The notes beneath the pieces are model-generated. The model was not told the DNA's origin. It saw only the letters and a list, made by a program, of their open reading frames with translations, and searched no databases. A stretch of DNA of 64,000 nucleotides, from contig JBBQZD010000001.1 of the NCBI GenBank assembly GCA_038208045.1, forward strand, positions 4,526 to 68,525, in the 5' to 3' direction. This stretch comes from Gemmatimonadales bacterium. Its GTDB lineage: Bacteria; Gemmatimonadota; Gemmatimonadetes; Gemmatimonadales; Gemmatimonadaceae. Each line of letters begins with the position of its first letter. Position 1 is the first letter of the stretch. The position numbers were made by a program, and so were the translations under genes. Positions 2 through 54,471 of the stretch are shown here, in pieces.

Positions 2-505
2 GTGTGCTGCCAACAGCGCCGCCGCGCTCGGGGTGATGCTTCCCTCGGCCGTCGGCAGGTGTTTCACGATCCACTTTCCCATTTGATCTTCACCCAACGG
101 GGCGAACGTCACCACGGTCGTGCGGGCGGGCCAGGTCTTCCCGGGCTCCTCGCCGGCCGGGAGAACAAGGACCAGCACGGTGTCGCGCGACGGGCGTTCG
201 AGATACGCGTCGAGCGCTGCCATCGCCGCCTTCTTCAGACCGTGCGCGTCCCGGATCACCGCCACGCGGCGTTCGGCCATCATGGGCAGCTGCTCCAGTA
301 CGCTGCGCAGTCCGGCGGGGTCGAGGTCCGTACCTCGCCGCACGTCGACATTGAAGTCGCGCATGGCCGGATCCGCCGCCGCGGCCAGCAACTGCCGCAA
401 CGCCTCTTCCTTCGTGTAGTCGTCGTCCCCGCACAGCACATACACCGGATCGAATGACCCGGTGTCTATGGCGGTTTTCAGCGTGCGTGGCGTCGCAGAC
501 GGCAT
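2..505 (-). CDS. holA: DNA polymerase III delta subunit (HolA), N-terminal part; 3' end lies outside the window
   Basis: Own translation of the minus strand from ATG at 505..503: MPSATPRTLKTAIDTGSFDPVYVLCGDDDYTKEEALRQLLAAAADPAMRDFNVDVRRG...RRVAVIRDAHGLKK. This fits the HolA N-terminal domain pattern. It is absent from the ORF track because it is open at the window edge; the 2..457 + ORF is its antisense shadow. Confidence 0.6.
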   Translation of the reverse strand, partial: MPSATPRTLKTAIDTGSFDPVYVLCGDDDYTKEEALRQLLAAAADPAMRDFNVDVRRGTDLDPAGLRSVLEQLPMMAERRVAVIRDAHGLKKAAMAALDAYLERPSRDTVLVLVLPAGEEPGKTWPARTTVVTFAPLGEDQMGKWIVKHLPTAEGSITPSAAALLAAH

Positions 506-544
506 CGGGGAGAATTATACCCCCACGGAGTCCGCCCTGCCGTC

Positions 545-1234
545 CTACTGCGCCAGGTAGCTCGCGAGTTGCAGTCGCGTCGGTGACGAGGAGAGTGCCG
601 ACGGACCGCGTCGCCCGGGTACGCGCCAGGCCGTGCGGACGGGAAGCGCCTCGAATCGCGGCAGCTCAGCGAGTGACTCGGCATGTGCTGTTGGCGCCAC
701 GGGTGCTCGCGGCGCCAGGTCGTCGCGCGGCGGCACCCTGGATCCGGTCGTCGAGAACACCGGCGCGGGCATGGATGCGGGCATGGATGCGGGCATGGAT
801 GCGGGCATCCGTTCGGGCAACCATCCCCGGGTCGTCACGAAGGTCGCCACGAGCATCGGCGTCGTTGCCAAGCCGGGTGCTCCCGGCCTCGCAACTCCCG
901 ATGCGCCTGCCAGAAGCAGGAAGGCCACCGATGCGGCGGTCATGACGGCGGCCACGCCCCATCGGACCCCAGGCCTCGGCGCTCGAAACACCACGCCATC
1001 ACCGGTCAGTCGCTCGTGCAGGCGCGCCCGGAAATCGGCCGACGGCTCGATCACGGGAAGCACCTGCAAGGCCAGCAGCGAGCGCCGCACTCTCACGTCG
1101 AGCGCCGAACAGGCCGGGCACGAATCCCCGTGTGCACGCATCGCCAGCGATTGCTCATCGCAGAGAAGGCCATCGACGAATTCCGCGTGCAGCCGACGGA
1201 ACTGGCGGCAGGAAAGCAAAGGGCGGCAAGGCAT
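545..1234 (-). CDS. anti-sigma factor (zf-HC2 type) with one TM segment
   Basis: Lies directly downstream of the ECF sigma gene. N-terminus MPCRPLLSCRQFRRLHAEFVDGLLCDEQSLAMRAHGDSCPACS has the H-x3-C-x2-C zinc-finger pattern. ATG at 1234 is preceded by GAGGG; the track ORF extends to a GTG at 1261. Confidence 0.65.
   Translation of the reverse strand: MPCRPLLSCRQFRRLHAEFVDGLLCDEQSLAMRAHGDSCPACSALDVRVRRSLLALQVLPVIEPSADFRARLHERLTGDGVVFRAPRPGVRWGVAAVMTAASVAFLLLAGASGVARPGAPGLATTPMLVATFVTTRGWLPERMPASMPASMPASMPAPVFSTTGSRVPPRDDLAPRAPVAPTAHAESLAELPRFEALPVRTAWRVPGRRGPSALSSSPTRLQLASYLAQ
765..808. repeat. 12-bp tandem repeat (gcgggcatggat, ~3.7 units) inside the anti-sigma CDS, encoding (MPAS)3-MPA
   Basis: Read directly from the sequence; in frame; the protein reads ...PERMPASMPASMPASMPAPVF... 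Confidence 0.9.
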
Positions 1235-2094: not shown

Positions 2095-2282
2095 ACAAGC
2101 TTTGCAACTTCAATACGGTGGCACGGAGGAAAAGGGGAGGGTCATGGCGACTGCAAATACTCTGAAGGGGCTCGCGGTGAGATCTCACCACCAGGCCCCC
2201 CAAGAATCGCAATTGCATCCTCCGCGGCCCTCAGCCGTTCCTCCGCGCCTCCGTGTTGAAGCAGTTGAGGAAGGGCGCTCCA
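2095..2282 (+). repeat. nested-palindrome repeat (NPR) copy 1, degenerate, beta/beta' arms
   Basis: ttcaatacggtggcacggaggaaaaggggagggtcatggcgac ... ggggctcgcggtgagatctcaccaccaggcccccc ... cctccgcggccctcagccgttcctccgcgcctccgtgttgaag aligns with copy 2. Confidence 0.7.
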
Positions 2283-8436: not shown

Positions 8437-8637
8437 CGGTGAGGGATGCTCGGCTTTTTTCAACACGGAGACACTGAGGAAGAACTGAGGGCCACGGAGA
8501 CTGCTACTGCCAAATTCTTTGGGGCTCGGCGGTGAGATCTCCCCGCCGGGCCCCCGTTGAATTGTAGTTGTCGTCTCCGTGGCCCTCAGCTGTTCCTTCG
8601 TGTCTCCGTGTTGAAGCAGTAAAAGGAATCGCCACGC
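8437..8637 (+). repeat. NPR copy 2, beta/beta' arms (near-perfect long hairpin)
   Basis: TTCAACACGGAGACACTGAGGAAGAACTGAGGGCCACGGAGAC ... center ... GTCTCCGTGGCCCTCAGCTGTTCCTTCGTGTCTCCGTGTTGAA. It begins 1 nt after the upp stop. Confidence 0.9.
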
Positions 8638-10701: not shown

Positions 10702-12120
10702 TCACTTCCCCACACAGAACGTCCGGAACACGCGGTCCAGCACGTCCTCGACGTCCACGGCCCCGACCAATTCCTCCAGCGCCGTCACCGCCGCGCGCAG
10801 GTGCGTCGCCGCCACCGGAGCCGGGAGCGCCCGCTCCATCCACGCCGCGCGAAACGCCGCCAGTTCCTCGCGGGCACGCCGCAACGATGCCTCGTGCCGC
10901 GCCCGCGTCACCACCGGCGTCTCCTCATCCGGCGTCCCCACCCTCTCGAGCACTGCCCGCCGAATGGCCCCGCGCAACAACTGCAACCCCTCCCCACCAA
11001 CCGCACTAACGCAAACACCCCCCAAAGAAGCAGCCTCCGTGGCCCTCAGCCCTTCTCCGTGCCTCCGTGTTGAAGTTGCAGTAGCAGTTGCAGTAGCAGT
11101 TGCAGTAGCAGTTTCCCCCAAATCACACTTGGTCAGCACCGGCACCACCACCCCCGCAGTGAGCCCGCGCACCGCAACAACGGTGCGCTCCAGCACCTCG
11201 ACGCTGTCCGCGCAGGCAAGCACAACGTGCGCCTGCGCCACATACCGCTCGCTCACCTCGATGCCCAGCCGCTCCAGCGTGTCGCCGCTGTCGCGGAGCC
11301 CCGCCGTGTCGACCAGCCGTAGCGGGTACGGTGTGTCGTCTACCAGCACCTCCACCGCATCGCGTGTGGTCCCGGGGATCTCACTCACCAGCACGCGCGC
11401 CTCGCCCACCAGCGCGTTGAGCAGTGACGACTTGCCCGCATTCGGCGGTCCCGCCAGCACCACCAGCGCGCCATCCCGGCCGAGCGCCGCGGCCGGCAGC
11501 GTGGCGAGCAGCCGGTCTATCTGGGCCAGCGCCGCATCACACGCCGTCGCCACGCGCTCGCGCGACGGCGCCGCCTCGTCCTCCTCGGGGAAGTCGATCT
11601 CATAGGCAATCAGCGCATCCACCTGCAGCAGTGCCTCGCGCATCGCCAGCAGCCGCTGCGACAGCGCCCCGTCGAGTTGTCGCACCGCCGCGCGATGCGA
11701 CGCGCGCGACCGCGCATCAATCAGGTCGGCCACCGCCTCGGCGCGCACGAGGTCCAGCTTGCCGTGCAGCACCGCACGCTCGGTGAACTCCCCGGGCAGT
11801 GCCGGCCGCGCGCCCGCGGTCACGCACGCCGCCACCAGCAGCGTGCTCACCACCGAGCCGCCGTGCACCGCCAACTCCACCACGTCCTCGCCCGTGTACG
11901 AGTGCGGCGCGGCAAAGCGCGTCACGAGGCCGTGGTCAATCACCTGCGCCGGGTCGTCGGCGTCGTGCATCGTCACCAGCGTCGCCAGGCGCGCGCGCTC
12001 CGGAAACGGCGTCGTCACGCGTCGGGCGATGGCGAACGCCCGCGCGCCGCTCAGGCGCACGATTGCTATCGCCCCGCGTCCCGGGGCGGTGCTCACCGCG
12101 ACGATCGTGTCCGTGTTCAT
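10702..12120 (-). CDS. mnmE: tRNA modification GTPase MnmE (TrmE), carrying a repeat-derived insertion in the G domain
   Basis: 472 aa with GPPNAGKSSLLN (G1), DTAG (G3), TKCD (G4), SAVGGEG (G5) and C-terminal FCVGK. Confidence 0.95.
   Translation of the reverse strand: MNTDTIVAVSTAPGRGAIAIVRLSGARAFAIARRVTTPFPERARLATLVTMHDADDPAQVIDHGLVTRFAAPHSYTGEDVVELAVHGGSVVSTLLVAACVTAGARPALPGEFTERAVLHGKLDLVRAEAVADLIDARSRASHRAAVRQLDGALSQRLLAMREALLQVDALIAYEIDFPEEDEAAPSRERVATACDAALAQIDRLLATLPAAALGRDGALVVLAGPPNAGKSSLLNALVGEARVLVSEIPGTTRDAVEVLVDDTPYPLRLVDTAGLRDSGDTLERLGIEVSERYVAQAHVVLACADSVEVLERTVVAVRGLTAGVVVPVLTKCDLGETATATATATATATSTRRHGEGLRATEAASLGGVCVSAVGGEGLQLLRGAIRRAVLERVGTPDEETPVVTRARHEASLRRAREELAAFRAAWMERALPAPVAATHLRAAVTALEELVGAVDVEDVLDRVFRTFCVGK
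11018..11075 (+). repeat. NPR partial copy 3 (right half, beta'-type arm) embedded in frame in mnmE
   Basis: ccccccaaagaagcagcctccgtggccctcagcccttctccgtgcctccgtgttgaag matches the right halves of copies 1, 2, 5, 9 and 10. Confidence 0.8.
11075..11113. repeat. 12-bp tandem repeat (gttgcagtagca x3 + gtt) inside mnmE, encoding (TA)6-T
   Basis: Read directly; in frame; abuts the element half-copy. Confidence 0.9.
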
Positions 12121-12130
12121 CTCAGGTCTT

Positions 12131-12323
12131 GTGCGCCAGTCAGGGCGTGTTCAACACGGAGACACCGAGGAAGGCTGAGGGCCCCGGAGACCGCCTTGAA
12201 GGAAACAAGAAACAGGGGGCCGGCGGACGAATATGTCCCCCGAACCCCGATAATGAAGCAGCCTCCGTGGCCCTCGCCGTCAACTCCGTGGCTCCGTGTC
12301 GAAGAAAGGGCAGAATGGCGCAC
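12131..12323 (-). repeat. NPR copy 4, inverted orientation (beta left arm / alpha' right arm)
   Basis: ttcaacacggagacaccgaggaaggctgagggccccggag ... cctccgtggccctcgccgtcaactccgtggctccgtgtcgaa. It fills the yidC-stop to mnmE-start spacer. Confidence 0.85.
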
Positions 12324-12333
12324 CAAGACAGGC

Positions 12334-17834: not shown

Positions 17835-17840
17835 GCCAGG

Positions 17841-18033
17841 GGCGCCATTCGGGGCTTTGTTCAACACGGAGCCACGGAGTTGACGGCAAGGGCCACGGAG
17901 ACTGCAACGGCAATTCAAGGGGGCCTGGGGGACAGCACGGTCCCCCGGGCCCCTGAGATTTTGTAATCGCAGCCTCCGTGGCCCTCAGCTTTTCCTCGGT
18001 GTCTCCGTGTTGAAAAAAGCCAAGAATGGCGCC
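17841..18033 (+). repeat. NPR copy 5 (alpha left arm / beta' right arm), full length with outer GGCGCCATTC...GAATGGCGCC palindrome
   Basis: Read directly. It fills the spacer between dnaN (stop 17834) and the convergent gene (stop 18045). Confidence 0.9.
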
Positions 18034-18044
18034 CCAGAACCCAG

Positions 18045-18899
18045 CTATGGCGTCCAGGAAACGGAAAGCCGGCTTTCCTGCTTCACGCGCTGGTTTCGGA
18101 TCTTGCTCTTGAATGACATCTCGAGGGTCGAGGTCCCGCTGGCCCGCAGCCAACGCGCCGCCGCGACATCAAGCGCGTAGCGAACCGTGCTCTCGCCCTG
18201 GGCCTCGATCGTCACGTGCTCCCCGAACTGTTCCCCGTCGCCGGTCATGCGGGATCGTGCGCGGCGCTCGATGGTCACGATGACGCGGTCGTTTTCGACA
18301 TCGGCGCGCGCCACGCGAAATTGCCGTGCGCTGGTGCCGTGCATCGGAATGCGATCACGGCAGGAGATCGTGTGAACGGTGTCCGTCCATTCAGTCCGCA
18401 GTCCGATCGTGTCCGGAAGGACCACCCATGCGTCGTACAGCCCCTGCATCACGCTGAGCGAGGGGTCGCTGCAGACATTCGACGCCGTCGGCAGCCGGAA
18501 GCCCGGCGTCGCGCCGCCGATGTCGGCACTGAACCGCGCGGGAAGCGCGAGCACGGCAATGGGCGTGGCGGCCCCCGCGCCGACCGCCACCTGGAAGGCG
18601 GTCAGGTGTCCGTCGAGGCGCCGAGGGTTGCCTGGCAGGCTCGCGTAGCTCGCGTCCAGCGTGGAGCGCAGGGTGTCCACACGCGCCGTGGTATCGCCCG
18701 TAATGGTCACCACGGCCTGTGTGCTGACCAGCACGTACTGTGAGGCGGTACTGGGCCGCAGGGCCCACGGGCCGGCCGTGGGGGGACCACTGGGCGCAGC
18801 GACGGGGCTGGCAGGGCGCGGCGCCGAGCGCACGGCCGGCGAGGTGACGCACGCGCCGGCCAGGAGCACCACGAAGAGCGATCGGGAGTGACGGAGCAT
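18045..18899 (-). CDS. hypothetical secreted protein or lipoprotein
   Basis: Start chosen at MLRHSRSLFVVLLAGACVTSP (signal/lipobox-like). No recognisable domain. The upstream part of the track ORF overlaps rnpB. Confidence 0.55.
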   Translation of the reverse strand: MLRHSRSLFVVLLAGACVTSPAVRSAPRPASPVAAPSGPPTAGPWALRPSTASQYVLVSTQAVVTITGDTTARVDTLRSTLDASYASLPGNPRRLDGHLTAFQVAVGAGAATPIAVLALPARFSADIGGATPGFRLPTASNVCSDPSLSVMQGLYDAWVVLPDTIGLRTEWTDTVHTISCRDRIPMHGTSARQFRVARADVENDRVIVTIERRARSRMTGDGEQFGEHVTIEAQGESTVRYALDVAAARWLRASGTSTLEMSFKSKIRNQRVKQESRLSVSWTP

Positions 18900-18965
18900 T
18901 GCCCTCAAGATGACGCCCGGCGCCCGGTGTCGAAAGCGGGGGCGGCGAGTTGTGCGCAACAAGAT

Positions 18966-18998
18966 CGCCCCGTTGCCGCACGAGGCGGCAACGGGGCG
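18966..18998 (-). terminator. perfect 14-bp GC-rich hairpin immediately 3' of rnpB
   Basis: CGCCCCGTTGCCGC-acgag-GCGGCAACGGGGCG, followed on the minus strand by ATCTTGTTG. Confidence 0.6.
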
Positions 18999-19002
18999 GG
19001 AC

Positions 19003-19367
19003 GACGGTGGGCCTGTAAGCCGGGTTCTGTCGGAACCGAAGTTCCGGACGGTCATTTCTCTCGGTGTACGGTCGCCCGCACACTCCAGCAACCAACCCGC
19101 GGCGTCTTGATCGCAGAGGACTGCTGCTCGCCGCCTATTTGGTCTTGCTCCCGCTGGGGTTTGCCGTGCCACACGTGTTGCCACGTGCGCGGTGGGCTCT
19201 TACCCCACCCTTTCACCCTTACCTCGGCTTTCGCCAAGGCGGTTTGCTTTCTGTTGCACTGTCCGTCACGCCTCACGGCGTGCCCAGGCGTTACCTGGCA
19301 GCGTGTCCATGGAGCCCGGACTTTCCTCGAAGCGGTTGCCCGCGTCGCGACCGTCCGGCCGCACCAA
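19003..19367 (-). ncRNA. rnpB: RNase P RNA, bacterial type A
   Basis: The minus strand contains CGAGGAAAGTCCGGGCTCCATGG (P4 5' strand), GCCAGGTAACGCCTGGG, AGTGCAACAGAAAGCAAACCGCC, GGTAAGGGTGAAAGGGTGGGGTAAGAGCCCACC and ACAGAACCCGGCTTACAGG (P4 3' strand). This is collinear with E. coli M1 RNA. The ends are estimated from P1 pairing (+/- 5 nt). Confidence 0.9.
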
Positions 19368-19430: not shown

Positions 19431-20408
19431 ATGACGTCGCGAGGTGGCGCCCATCACCCGGATGACAGCCGCGTGACGCCGCCGGCGAGCGTCTCCACGA
19501 ACCCCCCTCCGGAGGCACTCGTGACCGCTCGATTCGCGCCACCGCCCACCACCGCGGCCGTGCTCACCTGGCTCGAACCGACGGACCGTCCACGGGTGGA
19601 TGCCGCCGGCAGCGGGATCTATCGCGCCGTGCACCACGAAACCGTCGAGACCCTGCTGCGAGAGGTTCGTCGGTCACGGCCGGCGGCGGTCCTGATGTCC
19701 GTGGGGCGCACGCTCAGCGAGCAGGCACCGCGTGTGGCACGGCTGGTGCGCGAGTTTCCACGTGTTCCCATGGTGGCGCTCCTGTCGCGGGTCGATCAGG
19801 CCACGCCGCATGCCGTGCTCAACCTCGGAAACTGCGGCATCCGGAACCTGGTGGATGTTCGCGATGCCGCGGGCTGGCATCGCCTGCGCGAACTCGTCGC
19901 GCACGAGGCGGTCGGCGAGATCGACCGCCTGGCCCTCGGCATGCTGCGCGAGGAACTGGACGGCGCCAGTGATGATTGCTGGCGGTTCTTCGAGTCGCTC
20001 TTTCACGTCAGGACGCCGGCCGCGACGGTGCGCGAGTTGTCCAAGGCACTCGGGGTGCTTCCGAGCACGCTGATGAGCCGCTTCTTTCGCGCGCGGTTGC
20101 CGGCGCCGAAGCGCTACCTGGCGTGGGCGCGCCTGGTGCGGGCGGCCCGCGTGCTCGAGAATCCCGGCCTCAGCCTCGCCGACGCCGCGTACCAGCTCGA
20201 ATACTCGTCGGCGCAGAGCTTCGGGCGCCACATCAAGACGTTGCTGGGCCTCACGGCGGGCGAGTTCCGGCGGGCATACGACGGCCGGACGATGCTCCTG
20301 CGGTTTCGCGACGAACTGCTGCGTCCGCATCGCGAGGTGTTGATCGAACTGCGCCCCATTTCGGGGCGCCCGGCGGGCCATCGTCGCGGACAGCCGGTGT
20401 TCCACTAG
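19431..20408 (+). CDS. AraC-family transcriptional regulator with receiver-like N-terminal domain
   Basis: C-terminal HTH_AraC (LADAAYQLEYSSAQSFGRHIKTLLGLTAGEFR). The N-terminal half resembles a CheY-like fold with no obvious phospho-acceptor context. Start uncertain. Confidence 0.7.
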   Translation: MTSRGGAHHPDDSRVTPPASVSTNPPPEALVTARFAPPPTTAAVLTWLEPTDRPRVDAAGSGIYRAVHHETVETLLREVRRSRPAAVLMSVGRTLSEQAPRVARLVREFPRVPMVALLSRVDQATPHAVLNLGNCGIRNLVDVRDAAGWHRLRELVAHEAVGEIDRLALGMLREELDGASDDCWRFFESLFHVRTPAATVRELSKALGVLPSTLMSRFFRARLPAPKRYLAWARLVRAARVLENPGLSLADAAYQLEYSSAQSFGRHIKTLLGLTAGEFRRAYDGRTMLLRFRDELLRPHREVLIELRPISGRPAGHRRGQPVFH

Positions 20409-20420
20409 GCGCGCATGAGC

Positions 20421-20556
20421 AGGCAGCAGAGAAAGGCCGAGGGTCACGGAGCCGGCGACATACAGTCAAGCGAGGACATTATGAACCTCGAACCCGACAT
20501 TCCCAGCGTCGTCTCCGTGGCCCTCGGCCCTGCTCCGCGCCTTCGTGGTGAAGAAG
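20421..20556. repeat. NPR copy 6, degenerate (beta-type arms, replaced center) overlapping the 5' end of the GxxExxY gene
   Basis: The left arm gcagcagagaaaggccgagggtcacggagccggc matches ~24/34 to the copy 4 left arm. The right arm gtctccgtggccctcggccctgctccgcgccttcgtggtgaagaag aligns with the copy 1 right arm. Confidence 0.55.
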
Positions 20557-20969
20557 TTCACGCACCGAACGCGGCCAACACCGCCGTCGACCTCAAGCAC
20601 ACGCACGACCCGCTTACCGAACGCGTCATCGACGCCGCCATCGAGGTGCATCGGCAGCTTGGCCCGGGCCTGCTCGAGTCGGTGTACCAGCTCGCGCTCG
20701 AATACGAACTGCTCGCGCGGGGCATCTCGTTCGTCAGCGAGGTGCGGCTGCCGGTCCGCTACAAAGGGATGGAACTCGCCGGGCTGCTGCGGCTGGACCT
20801 CGTGGTCGAACGCGACCTCGTTGTGGAACTCAAGTCCGTGGACATCGTGCACGCCGTGAACCACGCGCAGGTGCTGACGTACCTCCGCCTTGGCGGCTTC
20901 CGCCGTGGGCTGCTGATCAACTTCAACGTCAGTCGGCTGGCCAACGGGGTGCGGCGGTTCGTGAGCTAG
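20481..20969 (+). CDS. GxxExxY protein (PD-(D/E)XK nuclease superfamily, TIGR04256-like)
   Basis: GLLESVYQLALEY (G-x-x-E-x-x-Y) and DLVVERDLVVELKS (D...ExK). ATG at 20481 with GAGGA 6 nt upstream. There is no alternative in-frame start downstream of the repeat arm. Confidence 0.8.
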   Translation: MNLEPDIPSVVSVALGPAPRLRGEEVHAPNAANTAVDLKHTHDPLTERVIDAAIEVHRQLGPGLLESVYQLALEYELLARGISFVSEVRLPVRYKGMELAGLLRLDLVVERDLVVELKSVDIVHAVNHAQVLTYLRLGGFRRGLLINFNVSRLANGVRRFVS

Positions 20970-20971
20970 GT

Positions 20972-21529
20972 TCAGGGCACCATTCGCGCGACGATCTCCC
21001 GGGCACCGGCCAGCGCTTCCACCGCAAGCCCCTCGGCCTCGAGCACTTCGCGCCCGCCCTCTTCGCGATCCACGACGGCGAGGACGCCGAGCACGTCGCC
21101 GCCGGCGGCGCGAATGGCGGCTACCGCTTTCAGCGCGGAGCCGCCGGTGGTGATGACGTCCTCAATCACCACGACCCGGTCGCCCGGCTGAAACGGACCC
21201 TCCACCAGCTTGCCTGTTCCGTGCGCTTTGACTTCCTTCCGCACCGTGAAGGCACGCACTGGGGTGTTGGCGAGCGCGCTGGCGTGCGCAATCGCATACG
21301 ATACGGGATCGGCGCCGAGCGTCAGCCCGCCAACCGAATCGGGCGACCATCCGCGCGCACGCATGCGCTCGAGGGCCAGCGGGCCGATCGTCGCGAGGCC
21401 GTCCGGGCTCATCGTCGTGAGGCGGGCATCGATGTACAGGTCGGACTGGCGTCCGGACGCCAGCGTGAAGCTGCCGCGCCGGGCGGAACGCGCGGCCAGC
21501 ATCTCGACCAACCGGGAATGGGGATCCAT
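20972..21529 (-). CDS. pyrE: orotate phosphoribosyltransferase
   Basis: 185 aa with PRPP-binding motif VVVIEDVITTGGSA. Confidence 0.95.
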   Translation of the reverse strand: MDPHSRLVEMLAARSARRGSFTLASGRQSDLYIDARLTTMSPDGLATIGPLALERMRARGWSPDSVGGLTLGADPVSYAIAHASALANTPVRAFTVRKEVKAHGTGKLVEGPFQPGDRVVVIEDVITTGGSALKAVAAIRAAGGDVLGVLAVVDREEGGREVLEAEGLAVEALAGAREIVARMVP

Positions 21530-22657: not shown

Positions 22658-22697
22658 CGTCTGGTGGTTGAGGCGGGGCGGCAGCCTGGGCTTGTTC

Positions 22698-22735
22698 CAA
22701 CACGGAGACACGGCGTCCTCGGTGTCTCCGTGTTG
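22698..22735. repeat. NPR mini-copy 7: outermost stem only (CAACACGGAGACAC-loop-GTGTCTCCGTGTTG)
   Basis: Read directly. It lies between the convergent histidine kinase and Ser/Thr kinase genes. The GGGCTTGTTCC left flank resembles the full-length left flanks. Confidence 0.7.
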
Positions 22736-22762
22736 CAGCCGTTCCACCCCGCACGCAAAACA

Positions 22763-30290: not shown

Positions 30291-30296
30291 TGTAGT

Positions 30297-30489
30297 CCGC
30301 CATACCGGGCTTGTTTCAACACGGAGCCACGGAGTCAACGGCGAGGGCCACGGAGGCAGCGACTACAAATTCCTTGGGGGTTTGGTGGACAGTCCCGTCC
30401 GCCGAGCCCCTTGGAATTGCGGGTGCAGTCCAGGTGGCCCTCGCCGTTGACTCCGTGGCTCCGTGTTGAAAGAAGCTTCAAATGGCGCC
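30297..30489 (-). repeat. NPR copy 8, alpha/alpha' arms (near-perfect hairpin), center inverted relative to copies 9 and 10
   Basis: The reverse complement of its center (ggggctcggcggacgggactgtccaccaaaccccc) matches the centers of copies 9 and 10. Confidence 0.9.
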
Positions 30490-30501
30490 CCACACTCGGC
30501 T

Positions 30502-44873: not shown

Positions 44874-44880
44874 CTTGGGT

Positions 44881-45082
44881 GGGCAATTCTGGGCTTCTTT
44901 CAACACGGAGCCACGGAGTTGAGGGCGAGGACCACGGAGACGGCAACGGCAATTCCAAGGGGGCTCGGCAAACGGGACTGTCCGCCGGGCCCCCCAAGTA
45001 TTTGTAGTTGCGGTCTCCGTGGCCCTCAGCCTTTCCTCTGTGGCTCCGTGTTCCGTGTTGAAAAAAGCTCAGAATGGCGCAC
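44881..45082 (+). repeat. NPR copy 9 (alpha / beta' arms; extra ccgtgtt duplication at the right end)
   Basis: Read directly. It fills the convergent spacer between stop 44873 and stop 45087. Confidence 0.9.
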
Positions 45083-45086
45083 CGAG

Positions 45087-53659: not shown

Positions 53660-53663
53660 TTTG

Positions 53664-53863
53664 AACGCCATTCGGGGCTTTTTCAACACGGAGCCACGGA
53701 GTCAACGGCGAGGGCCACGGAGGCTGCAACGGCAATTCAAAGGGGGCTCGGCGAACGGGACTGTCCACCGGGCCCCCAAGTATTTGTAGTTGCCGTCTCC
53801 GTGGCCCTCAGCCTTTCCTCGGTGTCTCCGTGTTCCGTGTTGAAAAAGTCCGGAATGGCGCAC
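53664..53863 (+). repeat. NPR copy 10 (alpha / beta' arms), full length
   Basis: Read directly. It begins 4 nt after the helicase stop, and its last base overlaps the tag stop codon. Confidence 0.9.
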
Positions 53864-54471
53864 TACCGCCGGCCTTTCTCCGCGCGCGGCCGGATGTCAC
53901 ACCCATCGAGATGGTCGTTGACGAGCCCCATGGCCTGCATGAAGGCGTAGCAGGTGGTGGGGCCGACAAAGGTCCATCCGCGCTTCTTGAGGTCCTTCGA
54001 AAGCGCCGTGGATTCCGGGGTGGTGGCCATCTGCATCAGTGCGTTCCAGGTGATCTTCTTCGGACGAGTACGCGGGCCAGGTTCGAAGCGCCACACATAC
54101 CGGTCAAGCGATCCCTCGGCGTCGATGAGCTCGGCGCAGCGCCGAGCGTTGTTGATGGTGCTCTCGATCTTGCCGCGATGGCGCACGATGCCTGCGTTCC
54201 CCAGCAAGCGCTCGACCTTGCGGGGCGTGTAGCGTGCCACCTTCTCGAGGTCGAACGCGTCGAACGCGGCGCGAAAGTTCTCGCGCTTGCGCAGGATCGT
54301 GAGCCAACTGAGCCCGGCCTGGAAGCCCTCGAGGGAGAGCTTCTCGAACAGGCGCCGGTCATCGTGCACGGGAAAGCCCCACTCCGTGTCATGGTACGTG
54401 ACGTAGATGGGGTCGGCGGCGCACCACGCGCAGCGCGTCAGGCCGTCGGGCGATGCGAAGGAGCCGGACAT
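53863..54471 (-). CDS. tag: DNA-3-methyladenine glycosylase I
   Basis: RCAWCAADPIYVTYHDTEWGFPVHDDRRLFEKLSLEGFQAGLSWLTILRKRENFRAAF. Alternative start at 54492. Confidence 0.9.
   Translation of the reverse strand: MSGSFASPDGLTRCAWCAADPIYVTYHDTEWGFPVHDDRRLFEKLSLEGFQAGLSWLTILRKRENFRAAFDAFDLEKVARYTPRKVERLLGNAGIVRHRGKIESTINNARRCAELIDAEGSLDRYVWRFEPGPRTRPKKITWNALMQMATTPESTALSKDLKKRGWTFVGPTTCYAFMQAMGLVNDHLDGCDIRPRAEKGRR

Follow-up and report, generated by a model that had tools for sequence, protein, structure and literature searches.

Rickettsia palindromic elements (RPEs) are palindromic repeats that are translated within host open reading frames (ORFs), and the intervening sequences (IVS) of 23S rRNA are excised by RNase III. 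The ORF-bearing 23S rRNA IVS of Coxiella burnetii has been described as a selfish genetic element (PMC4990558), and S23p/PF05635 is a four-helix bundle related to Avd of the diversity-generating retroelements (PMC10053308). The REPIN-RAYT system, as outlined in earlier reports (e.g., PMC3116915; PMC5581495; 10.1101/2022.05.22.493013), combines doublets of repetitive extragenic palindromic (REP) sequences with a REP-associated tyrosine transposase (RAYT). Here, we consider a 64,000-nucleotide (nt) stretch of a Gemmatimonadales bacterium genome (GCA_038208045.1, contig JBBQZD010000001.1, positions 4,526 to 68,525; hereafter, the window), in which a GxxExxY gene starts inside a degenerate copy of an abundant hairpin repeat. 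The gene belongs to PF13366, a family of PD-(D/E)XK proteins that yields more than 7,800 significant matches in a single search and whose function is listed as "Unknown" (Steczkiewicz et al., 2012; PMC3424549). GxxExxY genes are associated with inverted arms made of three tandem units and with gene-less hairpins bearing such arms, and the window repeats have the same arm type.

The first-pass annotation of the window had speculated that the gene and the repeat might be functionally connected, and had named a lack of repeats around other GxxExxY genes as the observation that would turn the juxtaposition into a chance insertion. The opposite was found. We collected 81 GxxExxY genes in 80 genome loci (labelled L) from more than 10 phyla and aligned the upstream flank (220 nt) of each GxxExxY domain with the reverse complement of its downstream flank (also 220 nt). 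The resulting enclosure score has a median of 47, versus 18 for 1620 random controls of the same span; 67 of the 81 genes exceed the 99th percentile of these controls, and matching gene-less hairpins co-occur with them. With 782 ORFs of 250 aa or more as controls, whose flanks were scored alike, the 99th percentile is surpassed by 61 of 73 genes (Mann-Whitney p = 3e-39). A typical arm measures 33 nt (median), is ~92% complementary to its partner and is made up of three tandem 8-9-nt units of the CACNGAG type (ACCACGGAGACACGGAGGCACGGAG, CACGGAG, CACAGAG, CGCAGAG, CGCCAAGA, CACCAAG, CACAAAG, CATATAAG), with arm ends of the form TTCA(C/A)C. The cassette is ~470 nt long, with medians of 9 nt between the left arm and the domain and of 7 nt between the stop codon and the right arm. 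Canonical single-hairpin cassettes are present in other Gemmatimonadales (L032, L048, L059, L060 and L088), and the same layout recurs in the RefSeq records of Bacteroides finegoldii and Bernardetia; in the Treponema RefSeq record, the arm match is 11 nt only.

The association was also recovered starting from the repeat. We scanned metagenome contigs with a pattern derived from other window copies (CTCCGTGGCCCTCNGCNNTTCCTC) and retrieved 70 loci, 52 of which carry the Gemmatimonadaceae-type repeat, while in eight (about six distinct genes) the arm match falls at a GxxExxY gene from another lineage. In L126, the gene is located exactly between perfect 42-nt inverted arms (CACGGAGGAAGCGCGGAGGGCCACGGAGGGCCACAGGAGTCG and its reverse complement). 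The layout of L094, L127 and L131 is the same, and these four contigs reach both ends of the cassette; L099, L146 and L161 have the upstream arm of L126 on contigs that end at or before the downstream arm, and L104 has arm-like sequence upstream only. The cross-phylum enclosure and the arm-seeded retrieval together establish, as an association, the link beyond chance that had been surmised from the window. It had also been proposed that GxxExxY paralogues be checked for flanking arms; this check is uninformative within the window, where tblastn detects no paralogue, but the GxxExxY genes of other genomes are systematically flanked by arms. Two of the retrieved cassettes are decaying gene-bearing ones: in L131 (~435-806, minus strand), an internal ~40-nt direct duplication breaks the frame, and L161 is truncated after ~90 codons. 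In 13 of 61 cassettes, in-frame start codons are found only upstream of or inside the left arm, and the Acidobacteriota N-terminus M-I-H-H-G-D-T-E-T-R is translated arm. Arm-encoded N-termini are thus a habit of the GxxExxY family rather than peculiar to the window.

Arm pairs fall into two size classes, with loops of either 10-120 nt or 300-600 nt. A GxxExxY gene is present in 42 of the 44 pairs with loops longer than 150 nt, and no other cargo was seen in ~1.6 Mb of loci. Gene-less hairpins (28 in 17 loci) mostly share the lineage-specific unit and TTCACC/GGTGAA-type termini with the neighbouring cassette (six of the eight loci shown). In L027 (Rhodocyclaceae) and L069 (Opitutaceae), a stretch of 20 kb holds two GxxExxY paralogues that differ in arm subtype, and gene-less hairpins of several subtypes (CACAGAGG-, CGCAGAGG- and CACCAAGG-type) are found near them. 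The repeat copies of the window are 73-89% identical among themselves versus ~73% to the copies at orthologous sites in related genomes. For instance, the copy on the dnaN side (17839-18035) is 77-82% identical to other window copies and 73% identical to those at L002 2098-2282 and L006 1932-2113; the L006 copies are likewise more similar within the genome than across orthologous sites. This pattern indicates concerted evolution or turnover and suggests that the hairpin population is actively homogenized. The cassettes themselves are mostly syntenic between related species in several phyla, pointing to vertical inheritance in many lineages, and similar cassettes with dissimilar flanks were encountered only in L126 versus L146 and in L032 versus L048. 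In this respect, they resemble domesticated, vertically inherited RAYTs more than hopping transposons.

On balance, we lean towards the view that the GxxExxY gene and the hairpin repeats constitute one system, a REPIN/RAYT-like partnership that employs a PD-(D/E)XK protein. In its general form, such a system would consist of a gene for a PD-(D/E)XK protein of ~125-130 aa placed between two ~33-nt inverted arms, with gene-less hairpins carrying the same arms alongside; in the window, the ~190-nt nested hairpins would represent the gene-less form and ORF 20481-20969 the resident, syntenic and vertically inherited protein gene. By analogy with RAYTs, the protein may bind or cleave the arms. It would act as a structure- or sequence-specific nuclease that recognizes the repeat units or the hairpin or cruciform formed by the arms, and recognition and cutting would maintain, homogenize or propagate the hairpin population, as RAYT does for REPINs. 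The broader proposition is more tentative and, in our judgement, still somewhat doubtful: GxxExxY proteins might be the dedicated nucleases of a pan-bacterial class of hairpins with tri-unit CACNGAG arms, driving their spread, homogenization or excision, and might thus form a second, mechanistically different REPIN/RAYT-like replicator system spanning at least 10 phyla.

Several observations weigh against a partnership of this kind. By the enclosure score, 14 of the 81 GxxExxY genes have no clear arms, and the single distant homologue found on viral contigs lacks arms as well. Classical transposition of the cassette is not evident, the cassettes being mostly syntenic, and reading of the printed element ends, which was not a systematic test, revealed no obvious target-site duplication. 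Host recombination could be an alternative source of the concerted evolution. The protein is minimal, its AlphaFold2 model showing no extra nucleic-acid-binding domain. In Gemmatimonadaceae, the hairpin density amounts to 3-5 per 10 kb, and the flanking of one orthologous gene could be due to chance; the link between gene and repeat rests on the cross-phylum pattern and on arm homology. Finally, the hairpin copies of the window are still well formed although the local gene no longer has its downstream element or its start codon, and the upkeep of the window hairpins may be independent of the local gene.

The similarities to REPIN-RAYT include dispersed, hairpin-forming, non-coding intergenic repeats that are homogeneous within a genome (e.g., PMC3116915; PMC5581495; 10.1101/2022.05.22.493013 for REPINs and RAYTs) and, in Gemmatimonadaceae, a protein gene located at a syntenic, vertically inherited and repeat-flanked locus. 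However, the protein considered here is a PD-(D/E)XK protein of ~125-130 aa rather than a Y1/HUH transposase of the IS200/IS605 type, and the arms are built of three tandem 8-9-nt units rather than of a REP palindrome. Furthermore, a single hairpin encloses the gene in most phyla, where several copies of it may occur, and action of the protein on the repeats is proposed by analogy. Because the enzyme class differs, the system is an analogue of REPIN-RAYT and not a member of it. As in the 23S rRNA IVS, a small ORF of unknown function is located in an element bounded by complementary arms (PMC4990558), but the element lies outside rRNA, its ORF belongs to PF13366 and not to S23p/PF05635, and dispersed gene-less copies exist. 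Pairs of miniature inverted-repeat transposable elements (MITEs) and autonomous transposons are comparable in their terminal inverted repeats, in the conserved termini (TTCACC.../...GGTGAA) shared by gene-bearing and gene-less forms and in the bimodal loops; unlike in MITEs, no recognized transposase family is involved here, and between species the gene-bearing form mostly occupies fixed, syntenic positions.

The bimodality of the loops lends itself to a different reading, which we consider unlikely, namely, that the hairpins are an independent family, spread by another enzyme or by the host, and that GxxExxY is a selfish or cargo ORF that resides in or homes into their loops, much like homing-endonuclease genes in introns or the S23p ORF in the 23S rRNA IVS, without propagating the gene-less copies. 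PD-(D/E)XK homing endonucleases exist, the gene always occupies the loop position of a structure that is also found without it, and the two loop classes would then be empty and occupied hairpins. The stability and synteny of the cassettes, as well as the healthy appearance of the window hairpins despite the gene's loss of an arm and a start codon, fit this explanation too. However, a generic vehicle might be expected to carry other genes, and GxxExxY is the sole cargo seen between such arms. Within a given genome, the type of arm unit mostly follows that of the neighbouring cassette, and no empty/filled polymorphism of one and the same hairpin was observed.

The tight fit of the arms around the coding sequence, often overlapping the start region, raises another alternative: that the arms act in cis, as RNA, on the expression of the gene they enclose, the stem of 5' and 3' arms surrounding the mRNA as an RNase III site, a translation gate or a stabilizer, with the protein acting on a substrate unrelated to the repeats. 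The dispersed gene-less hairpins would then be decayed cassettes, or REP-like terminators or stabilizers kept for the benefit of the host. The predicted RNA hairpins are very stable, gene-less copies abut the 3' ends of genes and fill gaps between convergent ORFs, and the ORF-bearing stem of the Coxiella 23S IVS provides a precedent (PMC4990558). Against this stands the nature of the arm mismatches, which show no sense-strand bias towards G·U-compatible changes (49 versus 58, p = 0.44) and include many transversions; a purely mRNA-level constraint receives no support from this test. The orientation of the gene relative to the arms is uninformative here, an inverted repeat reading alike on both strands. 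Cleavage of the stem would also cut off the 5' part of ORFs in which the ATG precedes the arm, and the same tri-unit arms in more than 10 phyla, along with the concerted evolution of dispersed copies, would be left unexplained. We regard this alternative, too, as unlikely.

The window has a GC content of 66.5% and, according to the taxonomy of the closest homologues and loci, is Gemmatimonadaceae DNA. With up to three mismatches allowed, the arm motif GCCGAGGGTCACGGAG occurs 19 times, compared to 1.9 occurrences expected. Six full copies of ~190-200 nt and four partial ones could be aligned, amounting to ~10 copies in 64 kb, all of them between ORFs (Table 1). The repeat is a nested hairpin with outer and inner arms that contain CACGGAG units, and it can be represented as TTCAACACGGAGCCACGGAG...GAGGGCCACGGAG or TTCAACACGGAGCCACGGAG...GGCGAGGGCCACGGAG. 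On a crude gene map based on GC content at third codon positions, the full copies at 8438, 30294, 44879 and 53662 begin or end a few nt from ORF ends and can fill convergent gaps, a placement similar to that of REPs and bacterial interspersed mosaic elements. The outer-arm hairpin at 22678-22742 resembles the short gene-less hairpins of other phyla. A search of the window against Rfam 15 at the gathering threshold identified RNase P RNA only, with no family on the repeats or arms and no rRNA; in seven loci with cassettes or hairpins, it detected only RNase P and one tRNA. The window RNase P RNA (bacterial class A, 287.5 bits; 19000-19367, minus strand) is flanked by the 18045-19184 ORF region and the AraC-like gene, and its presence accounts for the apparent lack of a clean protein gene in this part.

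Table 1. Repeat copies, the GxxExxY gene and neighbouring genes in the window (positions are those of the window; a point marks features listed without a strand)
Feature	Position	Strand	Description
Diverged repeat copy	2108..2281	.	alignment and family profile
Full gene-less copy	8438..8635	.	alignment and family profile
Partial copy, right arm only	11025..11083	.	repeat search and family profile
Full gene-less copy	12129..12324	.	alignment and family profile
Full gene-less copy	17839..18035	.	single stem of ~95 bp, -146.5 kcal/mol, z = -13; copy also at the orthologous site in L002 and L006
AraC-family (HTH_18) regulator gene, upstream syntenic neighbour	19431..20408	+	PF12833, E = 6.4e-13; position matched in L002, L006 and L091
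Left arm of diverged copy	20421..20457	+	inner arm GCCGAGGGTCACGGAG well kept, outer arm degenerate; pairs with 20508-20530 in the predicted fold
Variant centre, ~50 nt	20458..20507	+	mini-hairpin; Shine-Dalgarno-like GAGGA (20472-20476); ATG 20481 in apical loop
GxxExxY (PD-(D/E)XK, PF13366) ORF	20481..20969	+	162 aa: 32-aa repeat-encoded extension and 130-aa ancestral protein
Right arm (inner CTCCGTGGCCCTCGGC and outer CTCCGCGCCTTCGTGGTGAAGAAG)	20508..20556	+	translated as ...SVVSVALGPAPRLRGEE; in-frame GTG 20517
Position of ancestral start codon, now AAC	20577..20579	+	alignments and codon tables of orthologues
Conserved GxxExxY domain	20613..20966	+	G63-L-L-E66-S-V-Y69, D106 and E116-L-K118 all intact
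pyrE (orotate phosphoribosyltransferase), downstream syntenic neighbour	20972..21529	-	TIGR00336, E = 5e-43
Minimal hairpin, outer arms only (AACACGGAGACACGG...CGGTGTCTCCGTGTT)	22678..22742	.	between histidine-kinase and Ser/Thr-kinase genes
Full gene-less copy	30294..30491	.	alignment and family profile
Full gene-less copy	44879..45083	.	alignment and family profile
Full gene-less copy, occupying the gap between two convergent ORFs	53662..53864	.	alignment and family profile

The product of ORF 20481-20969 is readily recognized as a GxxExxY protein, with matches to TIGR04256 (E = 1.6e-38, 131.6 bits versus a cut-off of 35) and PF13366 (PDDEXK_3; E = 3.7e-38, 130.9 bits versus a cut-off of 22). 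The family profile match starts at residue 45; the length of 162 aa exceeds the ~125-130 aa typical of the family, which leaves the family membership of the domain unaffected. Both the GxxExxY motif and the PD-(D/E)XK signature (D...ExK) are present, at residues that are invariant or nearly so among homologues. The window gene retains 37 of the 38 columns conserved in at least 90% of 120 homologues, including E66, D106, E116 and K118, and departs from well-conserved residues (more than 70% consensus) in two positions, G51D and H127N. Pairwise ratios of non-synonymous to synonymous substitution rates (dN/dS) between the window gene and its relatives are 0.10-0.17 at dS of 0.7-1.3, the same range as among the relatives themselves, and the ratio against L001 is 0.095, although L001 also lacks the ancestral ATG. 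The window gene is thus still under purifying selection and looks functional. In the AlphaFold2 model of the 162-aa protein, the core is predicted with high confidence (predicted local distance difference test score above 90) and has the topology H-H-E-E-E-H-E-H-E, residues 1-43 scoring below 50. The predicted disorder of the N-terminal 43 residues fits a tolerated leader rather than a new domain. The nearest structures to the modelled core in the PDB are Cas4 SSO0001 (4ic1, E = 3e-3), the lambda-exonuclease family and splicing endonucleases, all of them weak matches; sequence searches of the PDB, PADLOC and PHROGs returned no match for the protein. Several homologues are 257-273 aa long, about twice the normal length (P0009, P0017, P0021, P0033, P0044, P0046, P0049, P0055 and P0110), and may be tandem two-domain fusions or result from read-through of adjacent cassettes.

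The gene begins within a repeat copy, as the first-pass annotation had recognized and as the protein-family and repeat-profile matches corroborate. A profile built from the six full copies matches 20428-20560 on both strands (E = 3e-11 and 2e-11), and this copy folds into a long hairpin (-83.5 kcal/mol, z = -6.4) with both inner arms and the right outer arm present, the left outer arm degenerate and the usual GC-rich apical stem absent. The left arm (20421-20457) is orthologous to the left arm of the first of two repeat elements in L002, L006 and L091 (77-86% identity). The centre contains a mini-stem of 5 bp (CGAGG 20471-20475 / CCTCG 20486-20490) with ATG 20481 in its loop. In-frame ATG, GTG or TTG codons upstream of the domain number three, ATG 20415, ATG 20481 and GTG 20517, each of them located in the repeat or ahead of it. 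The first in-frame start downstream of the arm, GTG 20646, lies inside the conserved first helix, which bears out the earlier remark that no usable start follows the arm. Because the ancestral ATG has been lost while the gene still looks functional, translation must start upstream of the domain. As far as the sequence can tell, it must begin in the repeat element, most simply at ATG 20481, and the fusion appears obligatory, as originally proposed: the ancestral ATG is AAC, there is no other downstream start and the gene is intact. Other details had to be amended. The spacing between GAGGA and ATG is 4 nt and not 6; the SD-like (Shine-Dalgarno-like) GAGGA is indeed present, but its GAGG also forms the 5' half of the small conserved stem; and the replacement centre of 48-50 nt exists as described but is not unique to the window, being conserved at the same site in related genomes. 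A scan of 20200-21100 for promoters and terminators found nothing.

Comparison with orthologous loci suggests how this layout arose. The gene order dnaA, dnaN, an unnamed gene, RNase P RNA, the AraC-like gene, GxxExxY, pyrE (minus strand), histidine kinase and Ser/Thr kinase is conserved across contigs, which identifies the window gene as an orthologue passed on by vertical inheritance. The closest homologues have a length of 130 aa and start with M-(T/P)-(A/G)-(I/F)-D-L-K, corresponding to window residues N33-T-A-V-D-L-K; the start codon is ATG in 12 other orthologous loci (L002, L006, L009-L014 and L089-L092), AAC in the window (20577) and AAG in L001. In L002, L006 and L091, the spacer between the AraC-like gene and GxxExxY holds two elements: element 1, with the unusual centre of the window (78-80% identity) and its own right arm, and element 2, a complete copy of the normal kind whose end lies ~20 nt upstream of the ATG. 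At the orthologous site, the variant centre is also found in L089 (64% identity) and L090 (54%), where, as in L002, L006 and L091, it is not the start of the gene; in L090, its stem shows a compensatory change (TGAGG/CCTCA). The centre ATG is found only in the window and L089 among the compared loci, and is absent from L002, L006, L090 and L091. In L089 (190-330), the reading frame of the centre ATG (ATGAATCTCGAA, shared with the window) stays open and continues in frame into a GxxExxY gene that retains the normal ATG; an extended isoform may thus have existed before the ATG was lost. A conserved long ORF through the repeat was considered and rejected, L090, L091 and L006 having in-frame stop codons 5-8 codons upstream of the ATG.

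The right arm of the window copy resembles element 1 at its 5' end and element 2 of L002, L006 and L091 at its 3' end, including the outer arm. This mosaic is best explained by a deletion of ~200 nt between two right arms, by which the left half plus centre of element 1 would have become continuous with the right arm of element 2 beside the gene. The ancestral ATG changed to AAC, and initiation at the apical-loop ATG 20481 would yield a disordered leader of 32 aa. The idea that the window is a one-off recent derivative of the two-element layout of L002 had to be partly revised, given that L089 and L090 likewise possess just one element, which has the variant centre; the order of events (deletion versus insertion of the second element) is not fully settled, but the window centre is closest to those of L002, L006 and L091, which still favours deletion. 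The in-frame fusion is a lineage-specific accident or rescue, through deletion and start loss, and not the basis of the link between gene and repeat. On the other side of the gene, a full element is present between the GxxExxY and pyrE stop codons in L002, L006, L010, L012, L013, L014, L089, L090 and L091 but missing from the window and from L001, the two stop codons being 2 nt apart in the window. Repeats are found on both sides of the gene in L002, L006, L010, L012, L013 and L089-L091, and only upstream in the window. At the 3' end of the window pyrE (20972-20990, minus strand; ...ARMVP*), the final codons and the stop overlap GGGCACCATTCG, which resembles the outer flank GGCGCCATTCGG of the repeat in the relatives. 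The downstream element seems to have been deleted in the window, leaving ~12 nt that now encode the C-terminus of PyrE. In this lineage, the gene is positioned next to or between complete hairpins and not inside one.

That the locus merely combines a common intergenic repeat with an unrelated, dying gene, a young pseudogene with a meaningless upstream ATG, is highly implausible: hairpins do fill many intergenic gaps in the clade, just one of the ~10 window copies touches the gene, the centre ATG is not conserved in L002, L006, L090 and L091, the SD-like GAGG is partly paired and two well-conserved positions carry G51D and H127N, but the enclosure statistics and arm-seeded retrieval exclude chance for the association, the gene has neither frameshift nor premature stop and keeps its conserved columns and low dN/dS, and L001, also without the ATG, is conserved as well.

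The local fusion, set within the favoured partnership of GxxExxY gene and hairpins, is reminiscent of RPEs in that a palindromic repeat contributes in-frame codons to a functional gene, in this case 32 N-terminal ones. Unlike in RPEs, the repeat here supplies the start codon after the loss of the ancestral one, and the host gene belongs to a family that is itself repeat-associated. In the literature that we searched, we found neither a description of the arms or of the association of GxxExxY genes with repeats nor a functional paper on PF13366, although the arm pattern may be known informally to annotators.

The local case illustrates that a repeat can rescue a gene after the loss of its start codon, and the arms could help annotation pipelines to set the start codons of GxxExxY genes and to flag the repeats. 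For PF13366, a large orphan family, a near-universal, sequence-defined partner makes the function directly testable. If the proposed partnership is correct, it would provide an origin and a candidate maintenance factor for the abundant hairpins in Gemmatimonadota, Acidobacteriota, Planctomycetota, Bacteroidota and other phyla, and would broaden the concept of long-lived, vertically inherited intragenomic replicators, as framed for REPIN/RAYT, to include a different enzyme class.

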